A DNA stretch of 64,000 nt from Escherichia coli (GTDB lineage: Bacteria > Pseudomonadota > Gammaproteobacteria > Enterobacterales > Enterobacteriaceae): NCBI RefSeq assembly GCF_048403405.1, contig NZ_CP183129.1. One strand, 5' to 3'. How positions within the stretch are numbered: position 1 is the stretch's first letter; the number at the start of each line of letters is the position of its first letter. Shown in pieces: positions 1,663 through 63,789 of this stretch. The position numbers and the translations under genes were made by a program. The notes beneath the pieces were generated by a model. The model was not told the origin of the DNA. It saw only the letters and a list, made by a program, of their open reading frames with translations, and searched no databases.

Positions 1663-2724
1663 ATGAAAACGATGCTGGCAGCTTATTTACCAGGAAATTC
1701 GACCGTCGATCTGCGGGAAGTTGCGGTGCCGACGCCGGGGATTAACCAGGTACTGATCAAAATGAAATCCTCCGGGATTTGCGGAAGTGATGTCCACTAT
1801 ATCTATCATCAACACCGTGCCACGGCAGCGGCACCCGATAAACCGTTATACCAGGGATTTATCAACGGTCATGAACCGTGCGGGCAAATTGTGGAGATGG
1901 GGCAAGGCTGCCGCCATTTTAAAGAGGGCGACCGCGTGCTGGTGTATCACATTTCTGGCTGTGGTTTTTGCCCGAACTGCCGCCGCGGCTTTCCTATCTC
2001 TTGTACTGGCAAAGGAAAAGCGGCTTACGGCTGGCAGCGTGACGGCGGCCATGCTGAATACCTGCTGGCGGAAGAAAAAGATCTGATCCTGCTCCCGGAC
2101 GCGCTGAGCTATGAAGATGGTGCGTTTATCAGTTGCGGCGTTGGTACAGCGTATGAAGGGATTTTGCGCGGCGAAGTTTCCGGCAGTGATAACGTGCTGG
2201 TGGTCGGTCTGGGGCCGGTCGGCATGATGGCGATGATGCTGGCGAAAGGTCGCGGTGCAAAACGGATCATCGGCGTTGATATGCTGCCGGAACGTCTGGC
2301 GATGGCGAAACAGTTAGGGGTGATGGATCACGGCTATTTAGCAACCACCGAAGGTCTGCCGCAGATTATCGCCGAACTCACCCACGGTGGCGCGGATGTT
2401 GCGCTCGATTGTTCCGGTAATGCCGCAGGTCGCTTACTGGCGTTGCAATCCACTGCTGACTGGGGACGGGTGGTTTACATCGGAGAAACCGGAAAAGTGG
2501 AGTTCGAGGTTAGCGCCGATCTGATGCATCATCAACGGCGGATTATTGGCTCCTGGGTAACCAGTTTGTTCCATATGGAAAAATGTGCCCACGATTTGAC
2601 TGACTGGAAACTGTGGCCGCGTAATGCCATTACCCATCGCTTCACGCTGGAACAGGCAGGAGATGCCTATGCGCTGATGGCGAGCGGTAAATGCGGGAAA
2701 GTTGTGATTAACTTCCCGGATTAA
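1663..2724 (+). CDS. yphC: Zn-dependent alcohol dehydrogenase family oxidoreductase
   Basis: GHEPCG zinc-ADH motif, GLGPVG Rossmann motif; start chosen at ATG 1663 (GAGGG RBS upstream) giving 353 aa; ORF-track start 1630 probably too long. Confidence 0.88.
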   Translation: MKTMLAAYLPGNSTVDLREVAVPTPGINQVLIKMKSSGICGSDVHYIYHQHRATAAAPDKPLYQGFINGHEPCGQIVEMGQGCRHFKEGDRVLVYHISGCGFCPNCRRGFPISCTGKGKAAYGWQRDGGHAEYLLAEEKDLILLPDALSYEDGAFISCGVGTAYEGILRGEVSGSDNVLVVGLGPVGMMAMMLAKGRGAKRIIGVDMLPERLAMAKQLGVMDHGYLATTEGLPQIIAELTHGGADVALDCSGNAAGRLLALQSTADWGRVVYIGETGKVEFEVSADLMHHQRRIIGSWVTSLFHMEKCAHDLTDWKLWPRNAITHRFTLEQAGDAYALMASGKCGKVVINFPD

Positions 2725-2735
2725 GGAGTCAGCGG

Positions 2736-3608
2736 ATGACCATCTATACGTTATCTCACGGGCCGCTAGAGCTGGACGTTTCTGACCGGGGCGGCGTCAT
2801 CGAAGGCTTCTGGCGTGACGCGACGCCGCTCTTACGTCCCGGTAAAAAAAGCGGTGTGGCAACCGATGCCTCTTGTTTTCCGCTGGTGCCGTTTGCAAAC
2901 CGGGTGAGCGGCAATCGTTTTGTCTGGCAGGGGCGTGAGTATCAACTGCAACCGAATGTTGAGTGGGATGCGCACTATCTGCACGGCGACGGCTGGCTGG
3001 GGCAGTGGCAATGTGTCTCGCGCAGCGAAGATAGCTTGTGTCTGGTGTATGAACATCGCAGCGGTGTTTATCACTATCGGGTAAGTCAGGCGTTTCATTT
3101 AACGGCAGATACGCTGACGGTGACGCTCTCTGTCACCAATCAAGGGGCAGAGACGCTGCCATTTGGTACCGGCTGGCATCCTTATTTTCCGTTGTCACCA
3201 CAAACGCGGATTCAGGCGCAGGCGAGCGGTTACTGGCTGGAGCGGGAGCAGTGGCTGGCGGGTGAGTTTTGCGAGCAGCTACCGCAGGAACTGGATTTCA
3301 ACCAGCTCGCGCCGTTGCCGCGCCAGTGGGTGAACAATGGTTTTGCCGGATGGAATGGTCAGGCTCGCATCGAGCAGCCGCAGGAGGGTTATGCCATCAT
3401 CATGGAAACGACGCCACCTGCACCATGTTATTTCATCTTTGTTTCCGACCCGGCGTTTGATAAAGGATATGCGTTTGATTTCTTCTGTCTGGAACCGATG
3501 AGCCATGCGCCGGATGACCATCATCGCCCGGAAGGTGGTGATCTCATTGCGCTTGCACCAGGGGAATCAACAACTTCAGAGATGTCGTTGCGGGTTGCGT
3601 TACTGTAA
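2736..3608 (+). CDS. yphB: Aldose 1-epimerase family protein
   Basis: 290-aa ORF, length and synteny equal to YphB. Confidence 0.88.
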   Translation: MTIYTLSHGPLELDVSDRGGVIEGFWRDATPLLRPGKKSGVATDASCFPLVPFANRVSGNRFVWQGREYQLQPNVEWDAHYLHGDGWLGQWQCVSRSEDSLCLVYEHRSGVYHYRVSQAFHLTADTLTVTLSVTNQGAETLPFGTGWHPYFPLSPQTRIQAQASGYWLEREQWLAGEFCEQLPQELDFNQLAPLPRQWVNNGFAGWNGQARIEQPQEGYAIIMETTPPAPCYFIFVSDPAFDKGYAFDFFCLEPMSHAPDDHHRPEGGDLIALAPGESTTSEMSLRVALL

Positions 3609-3618
3609 TTTATAAAAT

Positions 3619-3649
3619 GCCGGATAAGGCGTTCACGCCGCATCCGGCA
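3619..3649. repeat. REP (repetitive extragenic palindromic) element
   Basis: gccggataaggcgttcacgccgcatccggc, canonical E. coli REP palindrome between convergent yphB and yphA. Confidence 0.8.
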
Positions 3650-3655
3650 TCTTTC

Positions 3656-4078
3656 CTAACGCCGATCGAGAGAAATCGCCCCCGGCCCGGTAATTGCCAA
3701 CAGCAGGAATGCGCCAGCGATACTGACATTCTTCCAGAAATTAATCATATTTGGCCCAACCGCATCGCCGGTCATATCCCAGTAATGGTGACCAATCACC
3801 GCCGTACCCAGCGTGTAGAAAATAAACAGCACCGCCAGCGGACGGGTGAAAAAGCCAAGCACGATTAATATCGCGGCGGGCACTTCCATAACTACCGCAA
3901 TAATCGCTGCCAGCATCGGCATTGGCGCGCCCAGCGAGGCCATATATTGGACCGTACCGTCAAAACCCATCATTTTGGGAAAACCAAAAATAATGAAAAT
4001 TAAGACCACGGCGATACGGGCAATTAATAACAAAACGGGGCGTGCAGCACCAAAATCAAAATAACGTAGTGAGTTCAT
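3656..4078 (-). CDS. yphA: DoxX-family inner membrane protein
   Basis: Hydrophobic 140-aa product from ATG at 4078 (MNSLRYFDF...); ORF-track start 4150 likely upstream extension. Confidence 0.85.
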
Positions 4079-4174
4079 AACCAATCCCTTTGCAAGATAA
4101 TGTGATTTAAACGTAATACACACTCTTGCACCTCGCCACGCCCCAGGCATTGAGATATTCGCTAATTATCCTGG

Positions 4175-5386
<1,212 letters not shown>

Positions 5387-56335: not shown

Positions 56336-57913
56336 ATGACGGAAAACATTCATAAGCATCGCATCCTCATTCTGGACTTCGGTTCTCAGTACACTCAACT
56401 GGTTGCGCGCCGCGTGCGTGAACTGGGTGTTTACTGCGTACTGTGGGCGTGGGATGTGACAGAAGCACAAATTCGTGACTTCAACCCAAGCGGCATTATT
56501 CTTTCCGGCGGCCCGGAAAGCACCACCGAAGAAAACAGCCCGCGTGCGCCGCAGTATGTCTTTGAAGCAGGCGTACCGGTATTCGGCGTTTGCTATGGCA
56601 TGCAGACCATGGCAATGCAGTTGGGCGGTCACGTTGAAGCCTCTAACGAACGTGAATTTGGCTACGCGCAGGTTGAAGTCGTAAACGACAGCGCACTGGT
56701 TCGCGGTATCGAAGATGCGCTGACTGCAGACGGTAAACCGCTGCTCGATGTCTGGATGAGCCACGGCGATAAAGTTACCGCTATCCCGTCCGACTTCGTC
56801 ACCGTAGCCAGCACCGAAAGCTGCCCGTTTGCCATTATGGCCAACGAAGAAAAACGCTTCTACGGCGTACAGTTCCACCCGGAAGTGACTCACACCCGCC
56901 AGGGTATGCGCATGCTGGAGCGCTTTGTGCGTGATATCTGCCAGTGTGAAGCCCTGTGGACGCCGGCGAAAATTATCGACGACGCTGTAGCTCGCATCCG
57001 CGAGCAGGTGGGCGACGATAAAGTCATCCTCGGCCTTTCTGGTGGCGTGGATTCCTCCGTAACCGCAATGCTGCTGCACCGCGCTATCGGTAAAAACCTG
57101 ACTTGCGTATTCGTCGACAACGGCCTGCTGCGTCTCAACGAAGCAGAGCAGGTTCTGGATATGTTTGGCGATCACTTTGGTCTCAATATTGTTCACGTTC
57201 CGGCAGAAGATCGCTTCCTGTCAGCGCTGGCTGGCGAAAACGATCCGGAAGCAAAACGTAAAATCATCGGGCGCGTTTTCGTTGAAGTATTCGATGAAGA
57301 AGCGCTGAAACTGGAAGACGTGAAGTGGCTGGCGCAGGGTACTATCTACCCTGACGTTATCGAATCTGCGGCGTCTGCAACCGGTAAAGCACACGTCATC
57401 AAATCTCACCACAACGTGGGCGGCCTGCCGAAAGAGATGAAGATGGGCCTGGTTGAACCGCTGAAAGAGCTGTTCAAAGACGAAGTGCGTAAGATTGGTC
57501 TGGAGCTGGGCCTGCCGTACGACATGCTGTACCGTCATCCGTTCCCGGGACCAGGCCTTGGCGTTCGTGTTCTGGGTGAAGTGAAGAAAGAGTACTGTGA
57601 CCTGCTGCGCCGCGCTGACGCCATCTTCATTGAAGAACTGCGTAAAGCGGGCCTGTACGACAAAGTCAGCCAGGCGTTCACCGTCTTCCTGCCAGTACGT
57701 TCCGTTGGCGTAATGGGCGATGGTCGTAAGTATGACTGGGTTGTCTCTCTGCGTGCTGTCGAAACCATCGACTTTATGACCGCACACTGGGCGCATCTGC
57801 CGTACGATTTCCTCGGTCGCGTTTCCAACCGCATTATCAATGAAGTGAACGGTATTTCCCGCGTGGTGTATGACATCAGCGGCAAGCCGCCAGCTACCAT
57901 TGAGTGGGAATGA
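56336..57913 (+). CDS. guaA: GMP synthase (glutamine-hydrolysing)
   Basis: 525 aa; GATase domain plus ATP-PPase motif SGGVDSSV. Confidence 0.96.
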
Positions 57914-57959
57914 TTAACAGCTAACTCATAGCAAATCATTCCTATTCAGATGCCAACTC

Positions 57960-58105: not shown

Positions 58106-59356
58106 GTGCTTACCGATACAAAATTAAAAAACCTCAAGCCGCAGGACAAACTGTACAAGGTCTCCGATCGTGACGGGCTGTATGTAGCTGTGCTTACGTC
58201 AGGCACGGTCTCGTTTCGCTATGACTACCGTATCAACGGTCGCCGCGAAACACTGGTAATCGGGCAGTATGGGCGTGACGGTATCAGCCTGGCAGAAGCG
58301 CGAGAAGAACTGATTGCTGCAAAGAAGCTGCTTAAAGCAGGCCAGTCACCGGCTGCGGCTAAACGTGACGGTATCAAAAAGATTCGTGGTGCCGAGACGT
58401 TTGCGGTACATACCGACAGTTATATGAAACATGTCATCCTGGCTGACAGTACCCGCGCAATGAAGCAGGCGGTGATCGACCGTGACATACTTCCGGTTCT
58501 TGGCAACAAAATGATGACTGAAATTACCACATCGATGGTTCGTGATTTGTGTGACCGGATTGTCGAACGCGGTGGTCGGGCAACAGCAGTGCAGGCCAGG
58601 GAGATCATCAGCAGCGTATACCGTCACGCCAATGACCGTGGTCATGGTTTGTTTAATCCTGCGGCTGACATTAAACCTTCGTCTATCGCCATATTTAAAC
58701 CACGAGAGCGAACACTGACGCCAGAAGAAATTGGCCTGTTCTTCCGCACGCTGGATGCCATTGGTGCTATGGGCACTATGAAAATGGCTTTAAAGCTGGT
58801 GCTTATCACTATGGTTCGTAAAGGCGAATTCACCAATGCAACGTGGGACGAAATAGATTTTAAAAAATGGACATGGACAATTCCTTCAGACCGCATGAAG
58901 GGAAGCCGGGCGCATGTTATTTACCTGCCTAAACAGGCACAGGATATATTGGTCGGGTTGCAGATGTGCGCTGGTGGAAGTGAATATCTGGTTCCTGGTC
59001 GTTACAACTTCCGGAAGCCATTATCTAATGCCGCGCTGAACTCTCTGATCGACAGAACGGTGAAAATAATAAATGAAGATGGTGAGCATATTCAGGACTT
59101 CACCGTACATGATATGCGCCGTACAGCCAGTACGTTGTTGCATGAGGCTGGTTATCCTTCAGACTGGATTGAAAAGGCTCTGGCACATGAGCAGAAAGGT
59201 GTGCGCGCCGTATATAACAAAGCGGAATACGCCAGACAGCGCGCCTACATGTTGCAGCAGTGGGCCGATATGATTGATTCCTGGATTGACGGGGAGCATA
59301 CGGATCTGATTCCGTTCTCCCCGTCGAAGTTTGAGAAGTGGATGGCGGGAGAATAA
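58106..59356 (+). CDS. Tyrosine recombinase, P4-type phage integrase
   Basis: GTG start; N-terminus LTDTKLKNLKPQDKLYKVSDRDGLYVAV...FRYDYRINGRRE typical of P4-family integrase arm-binding domain; C-terminal catalytic region with HDMRRT and Y near end. Confidence 0.9.
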   Translation: MLTDTKLKNLKPQDKLYKVSDRDGLYVAVLTSGTVSFRYDYRINGRRETLVIGQYGRDGISLAEAREELIAAKKLLKAGQSPAAAKRDGIKKIRGAETFAVHTDSYMKHVILADSTRAMKQAVIDRDILPVLGNKMMTEITTSMVRDLCDRIVERGGRATAVQAREIISSVYRHANDRGHGLFNPAADIKPSSIAIFKPRERTLTPEEIGLFFRTLDAIGAMGTMKMALKLVLITMVRKGEFTNATWDEIDFKKWTWTIPSDRMKGSRAHVIYLPKQAQDILVGLQMCAGGSEYLVPGRYNFRKPLSNAALNSLIDRTVKIINEDGEHIQDFTVHDMRRTASTLLHEAGYPSDWIEKALAHEQKGVRAVYNKAEYARQRAYMLQQWADMIDSWIDGEHTDLIPFSPSKFEKWMAGE

Positions 59357-59359
59357 CGT

Positions 59360-59554
59360 TTAATAGTTCTGCTGATTTTCTTCCATCTCGGCTTCTGCTG
59401 CCAGTGATTCAATTTTGTCTGCGAATATTGCTGACAGCGTTGCAAATTCAGCATCAGTGACAGCGGGAATTGGAACAAACCTGATCCCGCTGTGTGCAAG
59501 CATGTTTGCAGTTTCAAGGCATTTCCTTAAATCTGCTGGTGATGCCCTGTTCAT
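59360..59554 (-). CDS. Hypothetical small phage protein (64 aa)
   Basis: ATG 59554 overlaps methyltransferase stop (ATGA coupling); acidic C-terminus; no recognised family. Confidence 0.4.
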   Translation of the reverse strand: MNRASPADLRKCLETANMLAHSGIRFVPIPAVTDAEFATLSAIFADKIESLAAEAEMEENQQNY

Positions 59555-60201
59555 GCTGCACGCTCCCGCCCCTGGTTGTCTGTTGGTGACAGCGGAGCAT
59601 TGCTGAATGCATTTGTTAATTCGGCAATATCCAACGCGTATCCAGGGTGTAGTTGCACTGCCGGGTCTTCGCACTGATTACCCCAAACATCGAAGCCATG
59701 AGACGTCTGGCGGGCGAACAGTTCAATGCGAGAAACATCGCCTAACAATTGCACAAGTTTTTCACGAACAATATCTGGTTTTCTTGAATGCTCAAGCCGC
59801 GGTGCGGTAAATGACTGAACGATCCCTGCATTAATGCGCGTAGGTAGTTTTCCCTTTACTGCAAACAGGCAATCTTCACTATTGGCGCGAGTCATGTGTC
59901 CCATACCCATAACCAGTTTATCTGGTTGTCGACTACCACATTTTATCCACGTGAAGCCCTTCATGGTCATCAGACGGAATCCCCAGACTTCAACAACTTT
60001 TAGTGCTTCGAGTGGTTGTGTTGGCACCCACCACATGGCCAACAGACAGTTTTCATCGGCCAAATCCCACACAGGAAGGCGGCAGATATCCAGCACACTC
60101 ATAACCGGGTATTTAAAACCGGCACCGCGATTACCATCTGCGGCTTTGTCCCGGTATACCCAGGGTGGATCTGCATAGATTAGTGTGTATTTCTTAGTCA
60201 T
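59551..60201 (-). CDS. MT-A70 family DNA N6-adenine methyltransferase (phage-type)
   Basis: MTKKYTLIYADPPWVY... with catalytic DPPW motif; start at ATG 60201 preferred (GGGGTGG RBS), ORF-track GTG 60213 possible. Confidence 0.8.
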   Translation of the reverse strand: MTKKYTLIYADPPWVYRDKAADGNRGAGFKYPVMSVLDICRLPVWDLADENCLLAMWWVPTQPLEALKVVEVWGFRLMTMKGFTWIKCGSRQPDKLVMGMGHMTRANSEDCLFAVKGKLPTRINAGIVQSFTAPRLEHSRKPDIVREKLVQLLGDVSRIELFARQTSHGFDVWGNQCEDPAVQLHPGYALDIAELTNAFSNAPLSPTDNQGRERAA

Positions 60202-60493
60202 AAACCACCCCACAACATCCTATGCCGCTATAGTCGCCACGGCGAAGGCCGTTACCTTTTGTGATACATTGGTCCCTGCGAACCGCGATCCTTGCACGCT
60301 CAACATCACCAGAAGCAACATCCATACACTGAAGCCAAAGGTGGGCGGCAATGCGGAACTGCCCTTTTTTCTCTCTTTCAATCGCGCGTTTTTCGATCTC
60401 TATCGCCGCAGGAGTAACGGCAACAACCTTTGAAGGGCTGCGCATTGAAACCTTGTTCATGTGATATTTTTCAAGTCGGCTTAACTTTCTCAC
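60194..60493 (-). CDS. Hypothetical phage protein (start uncertain)
   Basis: ORF overlapping methylase start by 8 bp; basic/charged; no recognised motif. Confidence 0.35.
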   Translation of the reverse strand: MRKLSRLEKYHMNKVSMRSPSKVVAVTPAAIEIEKRAIEREKKGQFRIAAHLWLQCMDVASGDVERARIAVRRDQCITKGNGLRRGDYSGIGCCGVVYD

Positions 60494-60602
60494 TTAATCC
60501 AACCCTCTCTGAAAATTAATGCCAGCAGATAAAGCCATGCTGAAACAGAGGCCAGGAATAAGTACCATCCTGACCATTTGCTCCAGTGCCTTAGCAGCAC
60601 AC

Positions 60603-60851
60603 TCATTCCGCGTTGCTCACGGGACGATATACACGTTGCTGAACAGGAGGTTTTTTACCCTGGAACTCTGCCGGGCTTGCTGCATGACGTTCATCAAGCC
60701 AACGCTCAACTTCATCACGGTTCCATGCGCAGCGTTTATCGGTGATATACCAGCGTTTAGGAAATTCCCCTGCGCGCTCCATACGGTCGATAGTGCTCCA
60801 TGACAGTGGAACCACCGCCAGGAGTTCCTTCTTACCTAATGCACCTTTCAT
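60603..60851 (-). CDS. AlpA-family DNA-binding protein (putative excisionase / phage transcriptional regulator)
   Basis: 82 aa; LSWSTIDRMERAGEFPKRWYITDKRCAWNRDEVERWL fits the AlpA/Vis winged-helix pattern. Confidence 0.65.
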   Translation of the reverse strand: MKGALGKKELLAVVPLSWSTIDRMERAGEFPKRWYITDKRCAWNRDEVERWLDERHAASPAEFQGKKPPVQQRVYRPVSNAE

Positions 60852-60900: not shown

Positions 60901-61782
60901 TTACATAGATGTTTCGTTTAATTCTTCCCGACGAACGCTGTAAACGTCGGTGGCTTTTGCCAGCAGTTCGTCATCATCTGAAAGTTTTTGTGCAATGTAT
61001 TTGTAAGCCTTATCCAGTTCGGAGACAGTGCTGTAATTCATCGCTGCGCTGGTAAAGGCCATCAGCATTTCTTCTGGATCACGGCTATCCGCTTTACGCG
61101 TTTGCTCATCAGGCTTTTTCACTGGTTTAGCGTTGATCAGACTGTTCATTCCCGCAGCAGTAGTTGTTTGCGGAGTAATGTCTCGCTCAACGCGCGGTGC
61201 CGTTTCCTGTAATTCGTCAGGGGTGTAAACACCGAGAAGTACATCAGGAGCGTGCAGGCGAGCCCATCGTTTCGTGCAAAGATAGGCAAGTTGCTGGCGC
61301 GGATCCTGTTCCCACAATGGAGAGTTACGCACTCCGGCTTGCGCCATACTGATGGTAAGCTCACGGGGTTCTGCTTCTCCTTTAAGAACTGCTGACACAG
61401 TTACCGTCAGATTCGGTGATTTATCTGTTTTGCCGTTAACATTCGACCAGTCACCGCTCCAGCGATAATTCAGGCGTGTCGCTAGCAGGCTGGAAGAGGA
61501 TACGACCGCGTTTACCAACTGTGCTTCGTAGCCTAACGTTCCGTTTACCACATGCGTTTTCTGCGCCACGGCGAAAGGGTTCATTCCCCACTGTGCCGCC
61601 TGCATGGTCACCGCCAGGCAATCGGCAGGTTTGCCTTCAAGATGTTTCGGCACAGTCGCTTTGCTTTGTGACATCAACTCCGCGAAACGCACCAGTTGAT
61701 TCATGCCCTCGGGGCTGAAGATTGCCGCAGCAGTGCCTACAGTTGCGCCTGGTTGTGATGTGATTGCGATATCATTGCTCAT
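60901..61782 (-). CDS. Putative RecT/Bet-like single-strand annealing protein
   Basis: 293 aa immediately downstream of and overlapping an exonuclease gene; region ...AAQWGMNPFAVAQKTHVVNGTLGYE... resembles RecT-family core; assignment by context and weak motif. Confidence 0.5.
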   Translation of the reverse strand: MSNDIAITSQPGATVGTAAAIFSPEGMNQLVRFAELMSQSKATVPKHLEGKPADCLAVTMQAAQWGMNPFAVAQKTHVVNGTLGYEAQLVNAVVSSSSLLATRLNYRWSGDWSNVNGKTDKSPNLTVTVSAVLKGEAEPRELTISMAQAGVRNSPLWEQDPRQQLAYLCTKRWARLHAPDVLLGVYTPDELQETAPRVERDITPQTTTAAGMNSLINAKPVKKPDEQTRKADSRDPEEMLMAFTSAAMNYSTVSELDKAYKYIAQKLSDDDELLAKATDVYSVRREELNETSM

Positions 61783-62600
61783 ACGTACATATCCTGTTTA
61801 CGTGCCCAGTCAGGGCGTTTAATAATTTCCACTCCGCCCCATTCATCGTTGATGCGGCATTCGTGATAGGTATTCAGATCCCGGCGGAACAGAGCGTGCC
61901 CGGCATCGACATCTGGCGCATCCAGCTCGAACACGCGTACCGGATACCGACCACAATCAATGCTTTCGCTCACGGCAAGAAAGAAAAAACCATGCGGCTG
62001 ACCAGTAACCCTCATTGCGCCTTCGCGGTACATTGCGTCCTGCACGTGGTAGCGGAATTCCTCGATGTGGCGTGCAAAACGGTCCATATCTGCAACCTTT
62101 TTCACGTCGACGATCACGTTGTGCTCGTTCAGCCATTTGTCTGGACGAATTCGGCACAACTCACCCGTCTCTTCATCATTCCAGTACATTGATGCTTCGC
62201 AGTAACCAGGTGCTTCCAGCATCCAGCGTGCCGCCGGGTGAGCCATTGCGCTATCACGCATCAGCTCCAGTTTCCGCCACTGCTCGGCATCAAGTACCGT
62301 AATCCCCATATCCGCCACATCACGAAGAAATGCCTCTTCGTCAGCTTTACCTTGTTTCGTCCGACGATCGAATTTCGGTGAAACAATGAAGCGTTTGTCG
62401 AACTCTCCAGGCTCCAGAAGCAGACAGTGCAATGCGGTTCCCATATCCAGTGCAGACTTTTTCTCTTCGTCTTCTGGTGCTGCCTGAACCCATTTAAGAA
62501 GCGCCGGATTCTTGGCAACCATGTCTAGTTGCGACTTACTCACTCCGTCACCGGCGTGGTAGTCTTCGTTGCTGATGTCGAAATAAATTCCCGGTTTCAT
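61779..62600 (-). CDS. PD-(D/E)XK-type exonuclease (exodeoxyribonuclease VIII / RecE-like C-terminal domain)
   Basis: 273 aa; N-terminal GIYFDISNEDYHAGDGVSKSQL and IVDVKK block fit this nuclease fold; paired with annealing protein. Confidence 0.65.
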   Translation of the reverse strand: MKPGIYFDISNEDYHAGDGVSKSQLDMVAKNPALLKWVQAAPEDEEKKSALDMGTALHCLLLEPGEFDKRFIVSPKFDRRTKQGKADEEAFLRDVADMGITVLDAEQWRKLELMRDSAMAHPAARWMLEAPGYCEASMYWNDEETGELCRIRPDKWLNEHNVIVDVKKVADMDRFARHIEEFRYHVQDAMYREGAMRVTGQPHGFFFLAVSESIDCGRYPVRVFELDAPDVDAGHALFRRDLNTYHECRINDEWGGVEIIKRPDWARKQDMYV

Positions 62601-62895
62601 GCCGCGTCCCTCTGTCCATCAAGCTGATCCGCCAGATCCCAGCGGGCGATAATTGCCATTGCCTCTCGCCGGTAGGCATCCATCAGTTCTTCGAACTCAG
62701 GGCTGTCTTTAGCAGCCTCCAGTACTTCCTGACGAACGCCTTTGCCTGTTACAACGTCGAAAGTTGAGGACAGTTGATGAAGTCGGATGCTCTCAATCAG
62801 TTCAACTTGTCGGTCATATAGCTGTTCTGACAGGCGGTAGTCCTTGTCGAATGCCAGCATGATTTTTTGAAGATTTTTCTGCTGATTAACGTTCA
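62597..62895 (-). CDS. Hypothetical phage early protein
   Basis: ~99 aa from ATG 62895 (MNVNQQKNL...); stop overlaps exonuclease start; unknown function. Confidence 0.4.
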
Positions 62896-62897
62896 TT

Positions 62898-63051
62898 ATC
62901 AGCCCTCCCATATCTCGTTATCGTTGGCCACATCGCGAGCTTCTTTGCTGACGAAAGCCCACTTAATGCCTTCCTGTAAGGTGCGGAACTTCCAGCTCAT
63001 GAATCCGCATGCAGTAACGCAGTACCAACCGTTGATGATTTTCCACTGCAT
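62898..63051 (-). CDS. Small ORF (50 aa), first gene of leftward early operon (tentative)
   Basis: MQWKIINGWYCVTACGFMSWKFRTLQEGIKWAFVSKEARDVANDNEIWEG; not in the supplied ORF track (<60 aa), found by manual translation. Confidence 0.3.
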
Positions 63052-63057
63052 AACTTG

Positions 63058-63147
63058 TTACCTCGGTCTGTTACCGTTGAGGTAATGATTATGCGTATCT
63101 GGTTTGATGTCAATAGATATGAGTTAAAAAAATTACCCAACAGGTAA
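63058..63147. promoter_or_regulatory. Early-operon promoter/operator region with inverted repeats
   Basis: TTACCTC-N14-GAGGTAA (63058-63085) and palindrome TTACCCAACAGGTAA (63133-63147), which recurs at 63845-63859. Confidence 0.5.
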
Positions 63148-63156
63148 TCTAACAGG

Positions 63157-63184
63157 CAATAAAAAAGCCGCCATGAGGCGGCTT
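63157..63184 (-). terminator. Rho-independent terminator downstream of repressor gene
   Basis: aagccgcc-atga-ggcggctt hairpin with U-tract on minus strand. Confidence 0.65.
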
Positions 63185-63204: not shown

Positions 63205-63789
63205 TTATTGTTTGTTTTTTTCGTTCTGGTTGATGACAAATTCAATGTAACTTTCGATCTTTGCTTTCTCGGTTTCGGGTAACAATGCGTAGCGCGAGCG
63301 GTCATAGTTGATAGTCGCAGGGTCGTGCGGGTGAATCAGTAATTCATAGCCATGACGCCCGAATGCGGATGCAACATTCTCCAGGGTGGAAATGGAAACG
63401 CTGACCTCATTGTTTAACAGGCGGCTGATTGTCACCTGGGCGACGCCGGATGCGCGGTGTAGTTTTCCCTGCGTTGAAAGGTCGCGGCTTTCGCTCATCC
63501 AGCGTTCCAGGTTGTGAGCAGCCAGCTGACCTATATCACTCGGGCCGACAGGCTGAAAACCTTCCTGAGAAAGCGAGCGATCGATATCAAGCCAGTTACG
63601 GGGTTTATTGGCGGCAGCTTCAATTTTTCGCGCAACCTGGTCGCCGATAACCTTCTTGCCAAGAGCCCAGCGGTTTACCAGATTTGCCTGAGTTCCAAGT
63701 TTTTCTGCCATCCGCGTCTGAACACCATTGAATTCACGGTCGATCAAGTCGTTGAGATTTTGCCTGCGGACGTCCTGGATACTTTTCAT
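63205..63789 (-). CDS. Phage repressor-like protein with two HTH (XRE/CI-type) domains
   Basis: 194 aa; two helix-turn-helix-like segments (QTRMAEKLGTQANLVNRWALG and LHRASGVAQVTISRLLNNEVSVSISTL); flanked by operator-like palindromes. Confidence 0.6.
   Translation of the reverse strand: MKSIQDVRRQNLNDLIDREFNGVQTRMAEKLGTQANLVNRWALGKKVIGDQVARKIEAAANKPRNWLDIDRSLSQEGFQPVGPSDIGQLAAHNLERWMSESRDLSTQGKLHRASGVAQVTISRLLNNEVSVSISTLENVASAFGRHGYELLIHPHDPATINYDRSRYALLPETEKAKIESYIEFVINQNEKNKQ

Follow-up and report, generated by a model that had tools for sequence, protein, structure and literature searches.

An orphan MT-A70 adenine methylase gene among the early genes of a phiV10-type Escherichia coli prophage

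An Escherichia coli prophage of the phiV10 type carries a trio of early genes in which an MT-A70 adenine methyltransferase is flanked by a PerC-family protein and a 64-residue DUF1382 protein. We consider it probable (about 0.72) that the methylase is an orphan N6-adenine DNA methylase and that the two small genes are independent of it. Public annotation already covers the phage as well as the genes and the families to which they belong, and the finding is ordinary, because the trio corresponds to annotated early genes of the well-known phiV10/epsilon15-type prophage. The target of the methylase is relevant to the methylomes of induced lysogens and to restriction evasion by phiV10-type phages. 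The prokaryotic MT-A70 clade is very large (11,933 clusters at 50% identity match it at E <= 1e-3), and its characterised members are two GATC-specific enzymes.

The prophage and its early-left operon

The whole stretch of DNA analysed, hereafter called the window, is 64,000 nucleotides long and covers just the first ~6 kb of the prophage. The segment 57900–64000 is 98.4% identical to phage vB_EcoP_ZX5 (MW722083) over 100% of the segment length, and its DNA identity to phiV10 and TL-2011b is 96–98%. The left boundary is marked by the core ATTGAGTGGGAATGATT at the 3′ end of guaA, identical to the att core with which vB_EcoP_ZX5 integrates at guaA (PMC9782041). Judged by this near-identity to an isolated member together with the att core, the element is a temperate podophage of the phiV10/epsilon15 type (genus Uetakevirus) residing at the guaA 3′ end. 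The trio corresponds to phiV10 (NC_007804) genes p34 (PerC), p33 (methylase), and p32 (DUF1382); the E. coli O157 typing phages 9 and 10 are members of the same group. RefSeq gives names to all three genes in ~10% of the complete E. coli genomes (544 of 5426).

Table 1. Features of the prophage segment, numbered from the first nucleotide of the window
Feature	Position	Strand	Evidence and remarks
attL core ATTGAGTGGGAATGATT	57899-57915	+	guaA 3′ end; left prophage boundary; exact single match, 0 expected by chance
P4-type tyrosine integrase	58106-59356	+	Pfam Arm-DNA-bind_3, Phage_int_M, Phage_integrase; PhiV10p31
64-aa acidic DUF1382 protein, lambda Orf63 homologue	59360-59554	-	ATG 59554 to TAA 59360; pI 4.53; PF07131, phrog_292, 8DSB; PhiV10p32; last operon gene
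216-aa MT-A70 (beta-class, DPPW) N6-adenine methyltransferase	59551-60201	-	ATG 60201 to TGA 59551; PF05063, phrog_359; PhiV10p33
99-aa PerC-family small regulator-like protein	60194-60493	-	GTG 60493 to TAA 60194; PF06069, phrog_868; PhiV10p34
38-aa predicted membrane peptide	60490-60606	-	phrog_17484 E=4.7e-27; PhiV10p35 'membrane protein'
AlpA-family excisionase/regulator	60603-60851	-	PF05930 E=3e-5, phrog_66; PhiV10p36
RecT-type single-strand annealing protein	60901-61782	-	PF03837 E=1e-31
RecE-like PD-(D/E)XK exonuclease	61779-62600	-	PF12684 E=4e-22; annotated exodeoxyribonuclease VIII/RecE-like in ZX5
104-aa early protein, no assigned function	62597-62911	-	phrog_856 E=2e-55; PhiV10p38
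50-aa ORF, first of early-left operon	62899-63051	-	ORF list; hypothetical in MS8345 and phiV10 (p39)
Candidate early-left (pL-like) promoter TTGACA-17-AATCAT	63085-63113	-	consensus scan, 10/12 matches; pattern match only
Terminator-like hairpin	63165-63184		after repressor; terminator scan, consensus match only
Double-HTH repressor	63205-63789	-	phrog_8 plus several phrogs of repressors; annotated as such in ZX5 and phiV10

The repressor is followed by the terminator-like hairpin, the promoter-like site, and nine chained ORFs, the order from which the trio is placed at the distal end of the early-left operon. The layout described in the sequence-only reading is borne out. The three minus-strand ORFs overlap as listed in Table 1: the ATGA shared by the methylase and the 64-aa ORF is exactly 4 nt long (59551–59554), and the upstream ORF overlaps the methylase start by 8 nt (ATGACTAA, 60194–60201). 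The trio also adjoins the integrase, which is convergent, with 3 nt between the stop codons. The mechanical methylase ORF extends to a GTG at 60213, and the RefSeq and phage annotations start at the ATG in Table 1. Across the whole minus-strand operon (63051 to 59360), seven of the eight junctions overlap, and the overlaps thus do not distinguish the trio; they would instead reflect a compact, translationally chained layout of the entire operon.

Over 80 related viral loci and one E. coli chromosomal locus, the pN/pS values are 0.17 for DUF1382, 0.21 for the methylase, and 0.09 for PerC, and no disrupted copies of the trio genes were found in this sample. Because of these low ratios and the lack of disrupted copies, the trio ORFs are, on evolutionary evidence, real genes and not chance ORFs. 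The gene for the neighbouring 38-aa peptide has a pN/pS of 0.70, and this peptide carries no PGAP annotation in strain MS8345.

The methylase, its probable target, and its role

The proposal from sequence that the central gene encodes a phage MT-A70 adenine methyltransferase is confirmed by Pfam, by a sequence search of the PDB, and by the predicted fold. Residues 5–176 match PF05063 over its full length (profile positions 1–172 of 172; E=4.4e-22, 79.3 bits against a cut-off of 23.9). The protein also matches phrog_359 (E=2e-119) and, in PADLOC, the generic type II methylase model MTase_II (E=8e-77); PADLOC returned no match for the two small ORFs, and NCBIfam contains no model matching the methylase or DUF1382. 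The sequence YADPPW occupies residues 9–14, and its DPPW (residues 11–14), an intact catalytic motif IV near the N-terminus, is aligned with the DPPW of the ciliate enzyme MTA1, which is the best match among solved structures in the sequence search (E=6e-13, as compared to 3e-6 for human METTL3). The AlphaFold (AF2) model has a pLDDT of 90.8 and a pTM of 0.83. Foldseek comparisons of this model with the PDB gave E-values of about 1e-13 to 1e-14 overall, with METTL3 at 2e-14, and superposed the model on MTA1 with an rmsd of 2.2–2.8 Å over ~179 columns at a probability of 1.00. Among 63 diverse homologues, Asp11, Pro12, and Trp14 (at least 90% conserved) are invariant or nearly so, as are His138, Ser139, Lys141, Pro142, Glu160, Phe162, and Arg164. 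The enzyme amounts to approximately the 172-residue catalytic domain, with no recognisable target-recognition domain.

The methylase appears to be an orphan, as had been supposed: the annotation of the ZX5 genome (98% identical, 52 features) lists no restriction enzyme, although some of its hypothetical proteins may still hide one, and the neighbours in the window are all otherwise assigned.

Which site does the enzyme methylate? Our literature search found only two characterised prokaryotic MT-A70 enzymes, PhiBZS1_p32 of Serratia phage vB_SspM_BZS1, shown to be GATC-specific by MboI and DpnI assays, and M.EfaBMDam of Tn1549, which is likewise GATC-specific and is 41% identical to BZS1 p32 (PMC7556043). 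Since both methylate GATC, this site is our leading guess for the window enzyme by analogy. The identity of the window enzyme to these relatives is gauged as ~45% from a proxy, HK639_35, a 75% homologue of BZS1 p32 that aligns with the window enzyme over its full length at 45% identity. A 23-aa insertion present in the GATC-specific relatives is missing from the window enzyme (after residue ~97), which also differs from them in its variable mid-segment. The residues around the insertion site (86–132) come in two allelic forms even where the enzymes are otherwise >80% identical; the specificity may therefore differ from GATC. According to a weaker reading of this variation, the two forms might be swappable specificity cassettes. 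The tetranucleotide palindromes of the ZX5 genome (observed/expected 0.71 for GATC and 0.27 for CTAG) give no clue to the target. We found no literature report of activity, target motif, or expression for the methylase or for relatives >50% identical to it, and the ST131 and O104:H4 methylome papers contain nothing on an MT-A70 prophage enzyme.

We propose the following course of events. Being downstream of the presumably repressor-controlled early-left promoter, the methylase would be silent in the lysogen and, as its operon position suggests, would be expressed early after infection or induction, and only then. It would modify the replicating phage DNA, and host DNA incidentally. The modification might guard the newly made genomes against the restriction systems of the next host, or it might maintain full methylation of the phage DNA at a Dam-like site. 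It speaks against a GATC target that such an enzyme would largely duplicate Dam in a Dam+ E. coli host. An anti-restriction or epigenetic role, as suggested in the sequence-only reading from the habits of orphan phage methylases, is plausible.

The same minimal catalytic domain, devoid of a recognisable target-recognition domain, could alternatively belong to an enzyme with relaxed or no specificity, similar to M.EcoGII or the non-specific Aeromonas and Serratia phage methylases. Such an enzyme would place m6A all over the phage DNA, giving wide protection against restriction, and its expression in the lysogen would be toxic. Non-specific adenine methylases do exist in E. coli prophages, where they are silent in lysogens (PMC5778455, PMC7556043), and a repressed early operon would suit the need to stay off. 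However, the known examples lie in other families: M.EcoGII, with 349 aa and a DPPY motif, is of the beta class, and the promiscuous enzymes that Drozdz et al. described fall in the alpha class (PMC5778455), with which the PhiOS31_p25/ARM81ld type can probably be grouped. Given, in addition, the GATC specificity of both characterised prokaryotic MT-A70 enzymes (PMC7556043), we regard this alternative as unlikely.

The flanking genes and the question of a functional unit

The two small proteins had been described as lacking recognisable motifs, which turned out to be wrong for both. The upstream ORF belongs to the PerC family: residues 35–80 match PF06069 (profile positions 5–50 of 90) with 30.1 bits, above the cut-off of 22.6, a modest match that covers half of the profile. 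The protein also matches phrog_868, 'transcriptional activator' (E=6.5e-62), while its score against the ANR family (NCBIfam NF033650) is 23.6 bits, below the cut-off of 32. Among the phage records searched, phrog_868 is confined to guaA-integrating Uetakevirus-type phages. By these profile matches, the upstream ORF is a regulator-like PerC-family protein conserved across the genus.

The 64-aa ORF encodes a member of the DUF1382 family that is homologous to lambda Orf63. PF07131 matches it over the full profile (positions 1–60 of 60; E=1.3e-30, 105.7 bits against a cut-off of 27), phrog_292 matches as well, and residues 2–62 match lambda Orf63 in PDB entry 8DSB (E=6e-13). No other DUF1382 gene was found in the portion of the prophage that the window covers. 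Orf63 of lambda and Phi24B exerts a pro-lytic effect on phage development (PMC8614690), and the protein is an obligate intertwined dimer in which a cleft binds an amphipathic helix; no partner of Orf63 is known (PMC10869804). The lambdoid exo-xis literature, the source of the Orf63 identification, never mentions an adjacent methylase. By analogy, we propose that the 64-aa ORF is an exchangeable, Orf63-like pro-lytic developmental protein.

Are the two flanking proteins partners of the methylase? One explanation takes the trio as a functional module, in which the PerC-like protein, the DUF1382 protein, or both target, activate, or inhibit the methylase, after the model of METTL14 for METTL3, the p1/p2 DNA-binding subunits of ciliate MTA1, or the controller proteins of restriction-modification systems. 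The coupling by overlaps and the bare catalytic domain would fit such a module, and the solved MT-A70 enzymes act in hetero-complexes (PDB matches; PMC7544214). In each of the five Uetakevirus-type phage records of which we read the annotation (phiV10, ZX5, epsilon15, Tyrion, and Klebsiella ST512 phi13.3), PerC precedes the methylase, and the same holds for a Salmonella prophage locus (L103) and for 80 of 80 IMG/VR loci. DUF1382 follows a 79% methylase homologue in Stx2 phages, and the helix-binding cleft of Orf63 could accommodate a partner. Moreover, rare ORFs fuse PerC to the methylase (P0005, P0002).

The exchange of neighbouring genes argues against this module. The IMG/VR viral-contig scan returned solely loci with 97–99% identical methylases, which makes it useless for distant synteny and useful for detecting cassette replacement. 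DUF1382 is absent from 22 of these 80 loci: a 219-aa Ser/Thr phosphatase takes its place in 18 and an 82-aa ORF in 4, and the replacement genes all begin at the same GCATGA junction. DUF1382 is not found beside the epsilon15, Salmonella, Klebsiella, or Tyrion methylases, and the lambda genome contains Orf63 but is not known to have a methylase gene. The association with PerC also loosens outside the E. coli phages, as one or two extra ORFs separate PerC from the methylase in epsilon15, Tyrion, and the Klebsiella relative, and different ORFs follow the methylase there. In all other contexts of 67–83% homologues PerC is missing, and so is DUF1382 where a 67% homologue lies between ninB and ninD, where a 77% homologue is found by itself behind the lysis genes, and where an 83% homologue follows an HTH_ParB gene. 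Among the phage records, the PerC-like protein is present in 36, as compared to 516 for the methylase. Furthermore, BZS1 p32 produced on its own in E. coli shows activity and GATC specificity (PMC7556043).

The fusion ORFs were rejected as Rosetta-stone evidence, since they arise from a 1-nt deletion in a T-run or from an internal deletion and are found in very few assemblies (one to three sequences). A single conserved upstream partner was also considered. The HTH-like regulators upstream of the methylase in HK639 and the Stx phages (142/143 aa) are 54% identical to each other, but PerC matches them with a one-to-one BLAST E-value of just 0.012, which is not significant, and no single upstream partner emerges.

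Because the junctions mostly overlap, DUF1382 is exchanged, and the methylase relatives occur in unrelated contexts in which the partners do not co-occur, the trio is not, as far as gene content can tell, a conserved functional unit, and we judge the module decidedly unlikely. The sequence-only reading had left the choice between modulators and unrelated early proteins; the exchange and context data fit the latter better. The flanking small genes would accordingly be read as independent early genes and not as methylase subunits.

A narrower link, between the PerC-like protein and the minimal methylase, is a long shot. It is suggested by the dependence of the eukaryotic MT-A70 enzymes on partners and by the finding of PerC upstream in each Uetakevirus that we examined. 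The PerC-like protein might act by recruiting or activating the methylase, by setting its timing, or as a methylation-sensitive transcription factor. If true, this would provide the PerC/Pch family with its first native phage function, and the dependence on accessory subunits known from the eukaryotic MT-A70 complexes would have a prokaryotic counterpart.

Finally, a METTL3-like action on host or phage transcripts or rRNA, which could be read from the high rank of METTL3 among the structural matches, from homologues named 'N6-adenosine-specific RNA methylase IME4', and from the ability of the beta-class M.EcoGII to act on RNA (PMC7544214), is most improbable: the name IME4 is assigned automatically from a COG, the DNA-methylating MTA1 is the better match among solved structures, the characterised prokaryotic members methylate DNA (PMC7556043), and the window enzyme has no RNA-binding domain.

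Comparison with known systems

The preferred reading, an orphan DNA methylase among independent early genes, can be set against several known systems. The closest are phiV10, ZX5, and TL-2011b, in which the gene order, the overlaps, and the P4-type integrase neighbour are the same as in the window, with allelic differences only; ZX5 also shares the guaA site and the att core. The phiV10 annotation differs in presenting RecE-RecT as one fused CDS, where the window has two ORFs, and its RefSeq record starts the PerC gene at an internal ATG (60460 here), which gives 88 aa. Epsilon15 and the other Uetakevirus members from outside E. coli differ more, by the intervening and following ORFs described above.

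The PerC-like protein is small, as are the other PF06069 proteins, EPEC PerC and the Pch proteins of EHEC prophages, and it is basic. The Pch proteins are prophage-encoded, as is the protein in the window. PerC and PchABC activate transcription, for example of LEE1/ler; our search returned no experimental report on the phrog_868 subfamily. Lambda Orf63 shares the SGIRFVPIP core with the 64-aa ORF and aligns with it over nearly the whole length. It belongs to an orf60a-orf63-orf61 block and, as in the window, lies between the recombination genes and int under the early-left promoter (PMC8614690). Stx phage Phi24B possesses a second DUF1382 paralogue, gp06, and the paralogue in Stx2 phages follows the MT-A70 methylase, as the DUF1382 gene does here.

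BZS1 p32 and M.EfaBMDam share with the window enzyme the Pfam family, the orphan state, and the origin from a phage or mobile element; they also resemble it in size (~200–220 aa) and in their location in an early region near an integrase (PMC7556043). The E. coli O104:H4 enzymes M.EcoGII and M.EcoGI are likewise orphan adenine methylases of the beta class; they are encoded by prophages and silent in the lysogen, but M.EcoGII has a central recognition domain, and no MT-A70 relationship has been reported for it (PMC5778455). Homology of the window enzyme to M.EcoGII was ruled out on family membership (349 aa, DPPY), and a link to M.EcoGIX was rejected because that enzyme is plasmid-borne and single-strand-specific.

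Ciliate MTA1, which produces DNA m6A within the MTA1c complex, and human METTL3 have the fold and the DPPW motif in common with the window enzyme at 20–26% sequence identity. Both are larger proteins that function solely in the company of a pseudo-enzyme partner and of accessory subunits binding DNA or RNA. The window methylase, in contrast, is a bare domain, the prokaryotic relatives of which are active alone (PMC7556043).

Three genes in a known prophage

The three minus-strand ORFs chained at 59360–60493 are genuine genes (see the table). Their coordinates as read from the sequence alone were reproduced, including the ATGA at 59551–59554 that is shared by the methylase stop and the DUF1382 start. 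The PerC-family ORF overlaps the methylase by 8 nt (ATGACTAA), and the stop codons of the integrase and the DUF1382 ORF lie 3 nt apart. Across 80 related viral loci and one E. coli chromosomal locus, pN/pS is 0.09 (99-aa ORF), 0.21 (methylase) and 0.17 (64-aa ORF), and no disrupted copy of any of the three was found.

Coordinates of the trio, its neighbours and the DUF1382 replacements
Feature	Position	Strand	Remark
Repressor gene	63205–63789	-	precedes operon
PerC-family 99-aa ORF	60493 (GTG) to 60194 (TAA)	-	ORF listing
Methylase 216-aa ORF	60201 (ATG) to 59551 (TGA)	-	YADPPW = residues 9–14
DUF1382 64-aa ORF	59554 (ATG) to 59360 (TAA)	-	pI 4.53
Tyrosine integrase	58106–59356	+	convergent with trio
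DUF1382 replacements (compared loci L012, L016, L040, L042 and others)	~4648–5307		equivalent to window 59554 downward

Over its entire length, the segment 57900–64000 shares 98.4% identity with vB_EcoP_ZX5, an isolated temperate podophage of the genus Uetakevirus, and 96–98% with phiV10 and TL-2011b; guaB and guaA lie upstream of the prophage. ZX5 uses the core ATTGAGTGGGAATGATT for integration at the guaA 3′ end (PMC9782041); this core occurs once in the window, at 57899–57915, overlapping the guaA stop codon. The trio has exact phiV10 counterparts, PhiV10p34 (PerC-type transcriptional activator), p33 (DNA methyltransferase) and p32 (DUF1382), adjoined by integrase p31. In RefSeq, 544 of 5426 complete E. 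coli genomes have these three products annotated. The trio is thus already in public annotation; it is ordinary, and its genes, families and phage are all already known.

The sequence-only reading saw no recognisable motifs in the two small ORFs, but both belong to described families. The 64-aa protein belongs to DUF1382 over its full length (PF07131, E=1.3e-30) and is homologous to lambda Orf63 (NMR structure, PDB 8DSB; E=6e-13), an obligately dimeric protein that has pro-lytic effects and for which no partner is known (PMC10869804; PMC8614690). The 99-aa protein is of the PerC family (PF06069 at 30.1 bits, cut-off 22.6; phrog_868, E=6.5e-62); it falls short of the threshold for ANR, a related family.

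A terminator-like hairpin, a promoter-like site (63113–63085) and nine ORFs lie 3′ of the repressor gene, and the methylase is the penultimate gene of this early-left operon. Seven of its eight junctions overlap, by the coordinates of the ORF list; overlap therefore belongs to the whole operon and is no sign of a trio unit. No terminator-like hairpin was found between the operon and the integrase gene (59356–59360). Given this, the convergent orientation and the 3-nt stop spacing, read-through of the operon would be antisense to int. The epsilon15 annotation places RNase III sites around this junction area.

Two further features of the operon were observed. A 38-aa predicted membrane peptide (60490–60606, minus strand; phrog_17484, PhiV10p35), unannotated by PGAP in E. 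coli MS8345, lies between AlpA and PerC; its pN/pS of 0.70, far above its neighbours, means that it is weakly constrained or else no real gene. The RecE-like and RecT genes (60901–62600) are separate and overlap by 4 nt in the window, ZX5 and epsilon15, while phiV10 RefSeq gives one fused 586-aa CDS (2333–4093 of the phiV10 locus), probably a frameshift or annotation difference.

Identity of the methylase

The middle protein is an MT-A70 methyltransferase, and all tests agree. It matches PF05063 over all 172 profile positions (E=4.4e-22) and phrog_359, “DNA methyltransferase” (E=2e-119). In a PDB sequence search, its DPPW aligned with that of MTA1, a DNA methylase of Tetrahymena (E=6e-13), and with that of human METTL3 (E=3e-6). 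Consistently, the AlphaFold2 model (pLDDT 90.8) matched METTL3 in Foldseek (E=2e-14) and MTA1 (2.2 Å rmsd, 179 columns). Similarity to the MT-A70 fold, on which the sequence-only reading had staked its assignment, was thus found; its observation stood, and its interpretation is partly supported, holding for the methylase but not for the lack of motifs in the small ORFs.

Among 63 diverse homologues, D11, P12 and W14 are (near-)invariant, as is a second block comprising H138, S139, K141, P142, E160, F162 and R164. The catalytic domain is intact and under purifying selection. Non-specific methylation of the M.EcoGII kind is possible for so small an enzyme, although the known non-specific enzymes come from other families.

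The prokaryotic MT-A70 family is very large, with 11,933 matching 50%-identity clusters at E<=1e-3 and 6,219 at E<=1e-10. N-terminal extensions of 150–280 residues are common among its members, whereas those of phages consist of the domain alone.

Gene exchange around the methylase

Is the trio a unit? The evidence from compared gene orders says no. In an exchange survey of 80 IMG/VR loci with methylases 97–99% identical, DUF1382 is absent from 22, replaced in 18 by a 219-aa lambda-PP-like Ser/Thr phosphatase and in four by an 82-aa ORF. Every replacement begins at the identical GCATGA stop/start junction, so this position works as a slot for cargo at the operon's end. Epsilon15 has PerC, a 35-aa ORF, the methylase and a serotype-conversion gene in that order; a guaA-integrated Salmonella prophage has PerC, DUF1317, the methylase and an unrelated 59-aa ORF. 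A Klebsiella prophage and Enterobacter phage Tyrion are arranged similarly, with PerC apart from the methylase and unrelated genes after it.

Elsewhere, a 67% methylase homologue lies between ninB and ninD in P22-like phages, a 77% one is found by itself behind the lysis cassette, and an 83% one comes after an HTH_ParB gene, with a convergent RloB/AAA_21 gene pair opposite it. The PerC subfamily occurs in only 36 phage records, against 516 with a methylase homologue. Lambda has Orf63 and is not known to carry a methylase gene. In the Stx2 phages, a 79% homologue lies between a 118/143-aa HTH-like protein upstream, which is not PerC, and a DUF1382 paralogue downstream. That DUF1382 recurs with the methylase in two phage groups is best ascribed to how often each of them occupies the short stretch separating the recombination genes from int. 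The methylase tails abutting DUF1382 in the two groups (residues 179–216) are 13% identical and thus unrelated, so the two genes did not descend together as one block.

A three-subunit module of methylase, PerC and DUF1382 is disfavoured: the DUF1382 cassette is replaced in related loci, and the methylase p32 of Serratia phage BZS1 is active on its own when produced in E. coli (PMC7556043). A link of the methylase to PerC, which accompanies it throughout the genus, has a low probability.

Three local arrangements were also recorded. In Klebsiella loci L097–L102 (~3156–4915), the convergent pair after the 83% methylase, RloB with AAA_21/AAA_15, may be an ATPase-nuclease defence pair, so that the methylase of this lineage may adjoin a phage defence island. 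A 142/143-aa HTH-like “regulator” lies upstream of an MT-A70 methylase in HK639 (L108, 29972–30400; HK639_37) and in the Stx2 prophage (L105, 1988–2419). The two regulators share 54% identity and accompany methylases of different subtypes, and a 55-aa ORF intervenes in HK639. Rare PerC-methylase fusion ORFs occur in two compared proteins, P0005 (297 aa) and P0002 (263 aa), at the equivalent of 60194–60201. Loss of one T in the TTT run that immediately precedes the methylase ATG explains the former and an internal deletion the latter; with one to three member sequences, mutations or assembly errors are likely.

Proposed role and target

The annotation of ZX5, whose genome is 98% identical, lists no restriction enzyme. 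By the reasoning applied to other lysogen-silent prophage methylases (PMC5778455; PMC4659465), we infer that the methylase would be silent in the lysogen, be expressed early on infection or induction, and methylate phage DNA. Methylation of RNA seems unlikely, because the closest characterised relatives act on DNA.

Residues 86–132 (59806–59946) occur in two allelic forms (IKCGSRQPDKLVMGMGH...INAGIVQSF and HKTNKHKGNSAIGMGH...MDASICQHV) between flanks that are >80% identical. The window, phiV10 and Stx phages share one form, and epsilon15 and the nin-region type share the other. A third form, the HK639/BZS1 type, carries a 23-aa insertion, and the homologue P0074 is a chimera of the mid-segment types. 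This segment may be a swappable specificity element.

Which sequence would be methylated? Palindrome statistics for ZX5 were uninformative on this point. The only characterised prokaryotic MT-A70 enzymes found in the literature are BZS1 p32 and M.EfaBMDam of Tn1549, which are GATC-specific and 41% identical (PMC7556043). HK639_35, a 75% homologue of BZS1 p32, is 45% identical to the window methylase; through this link GATC is the leading, if weak, guess. Two things weaken it: residues 86–132 vary as described above, and the window methylase lacks the 23-aa insertion that these GATC enzymes have after about residue 97.
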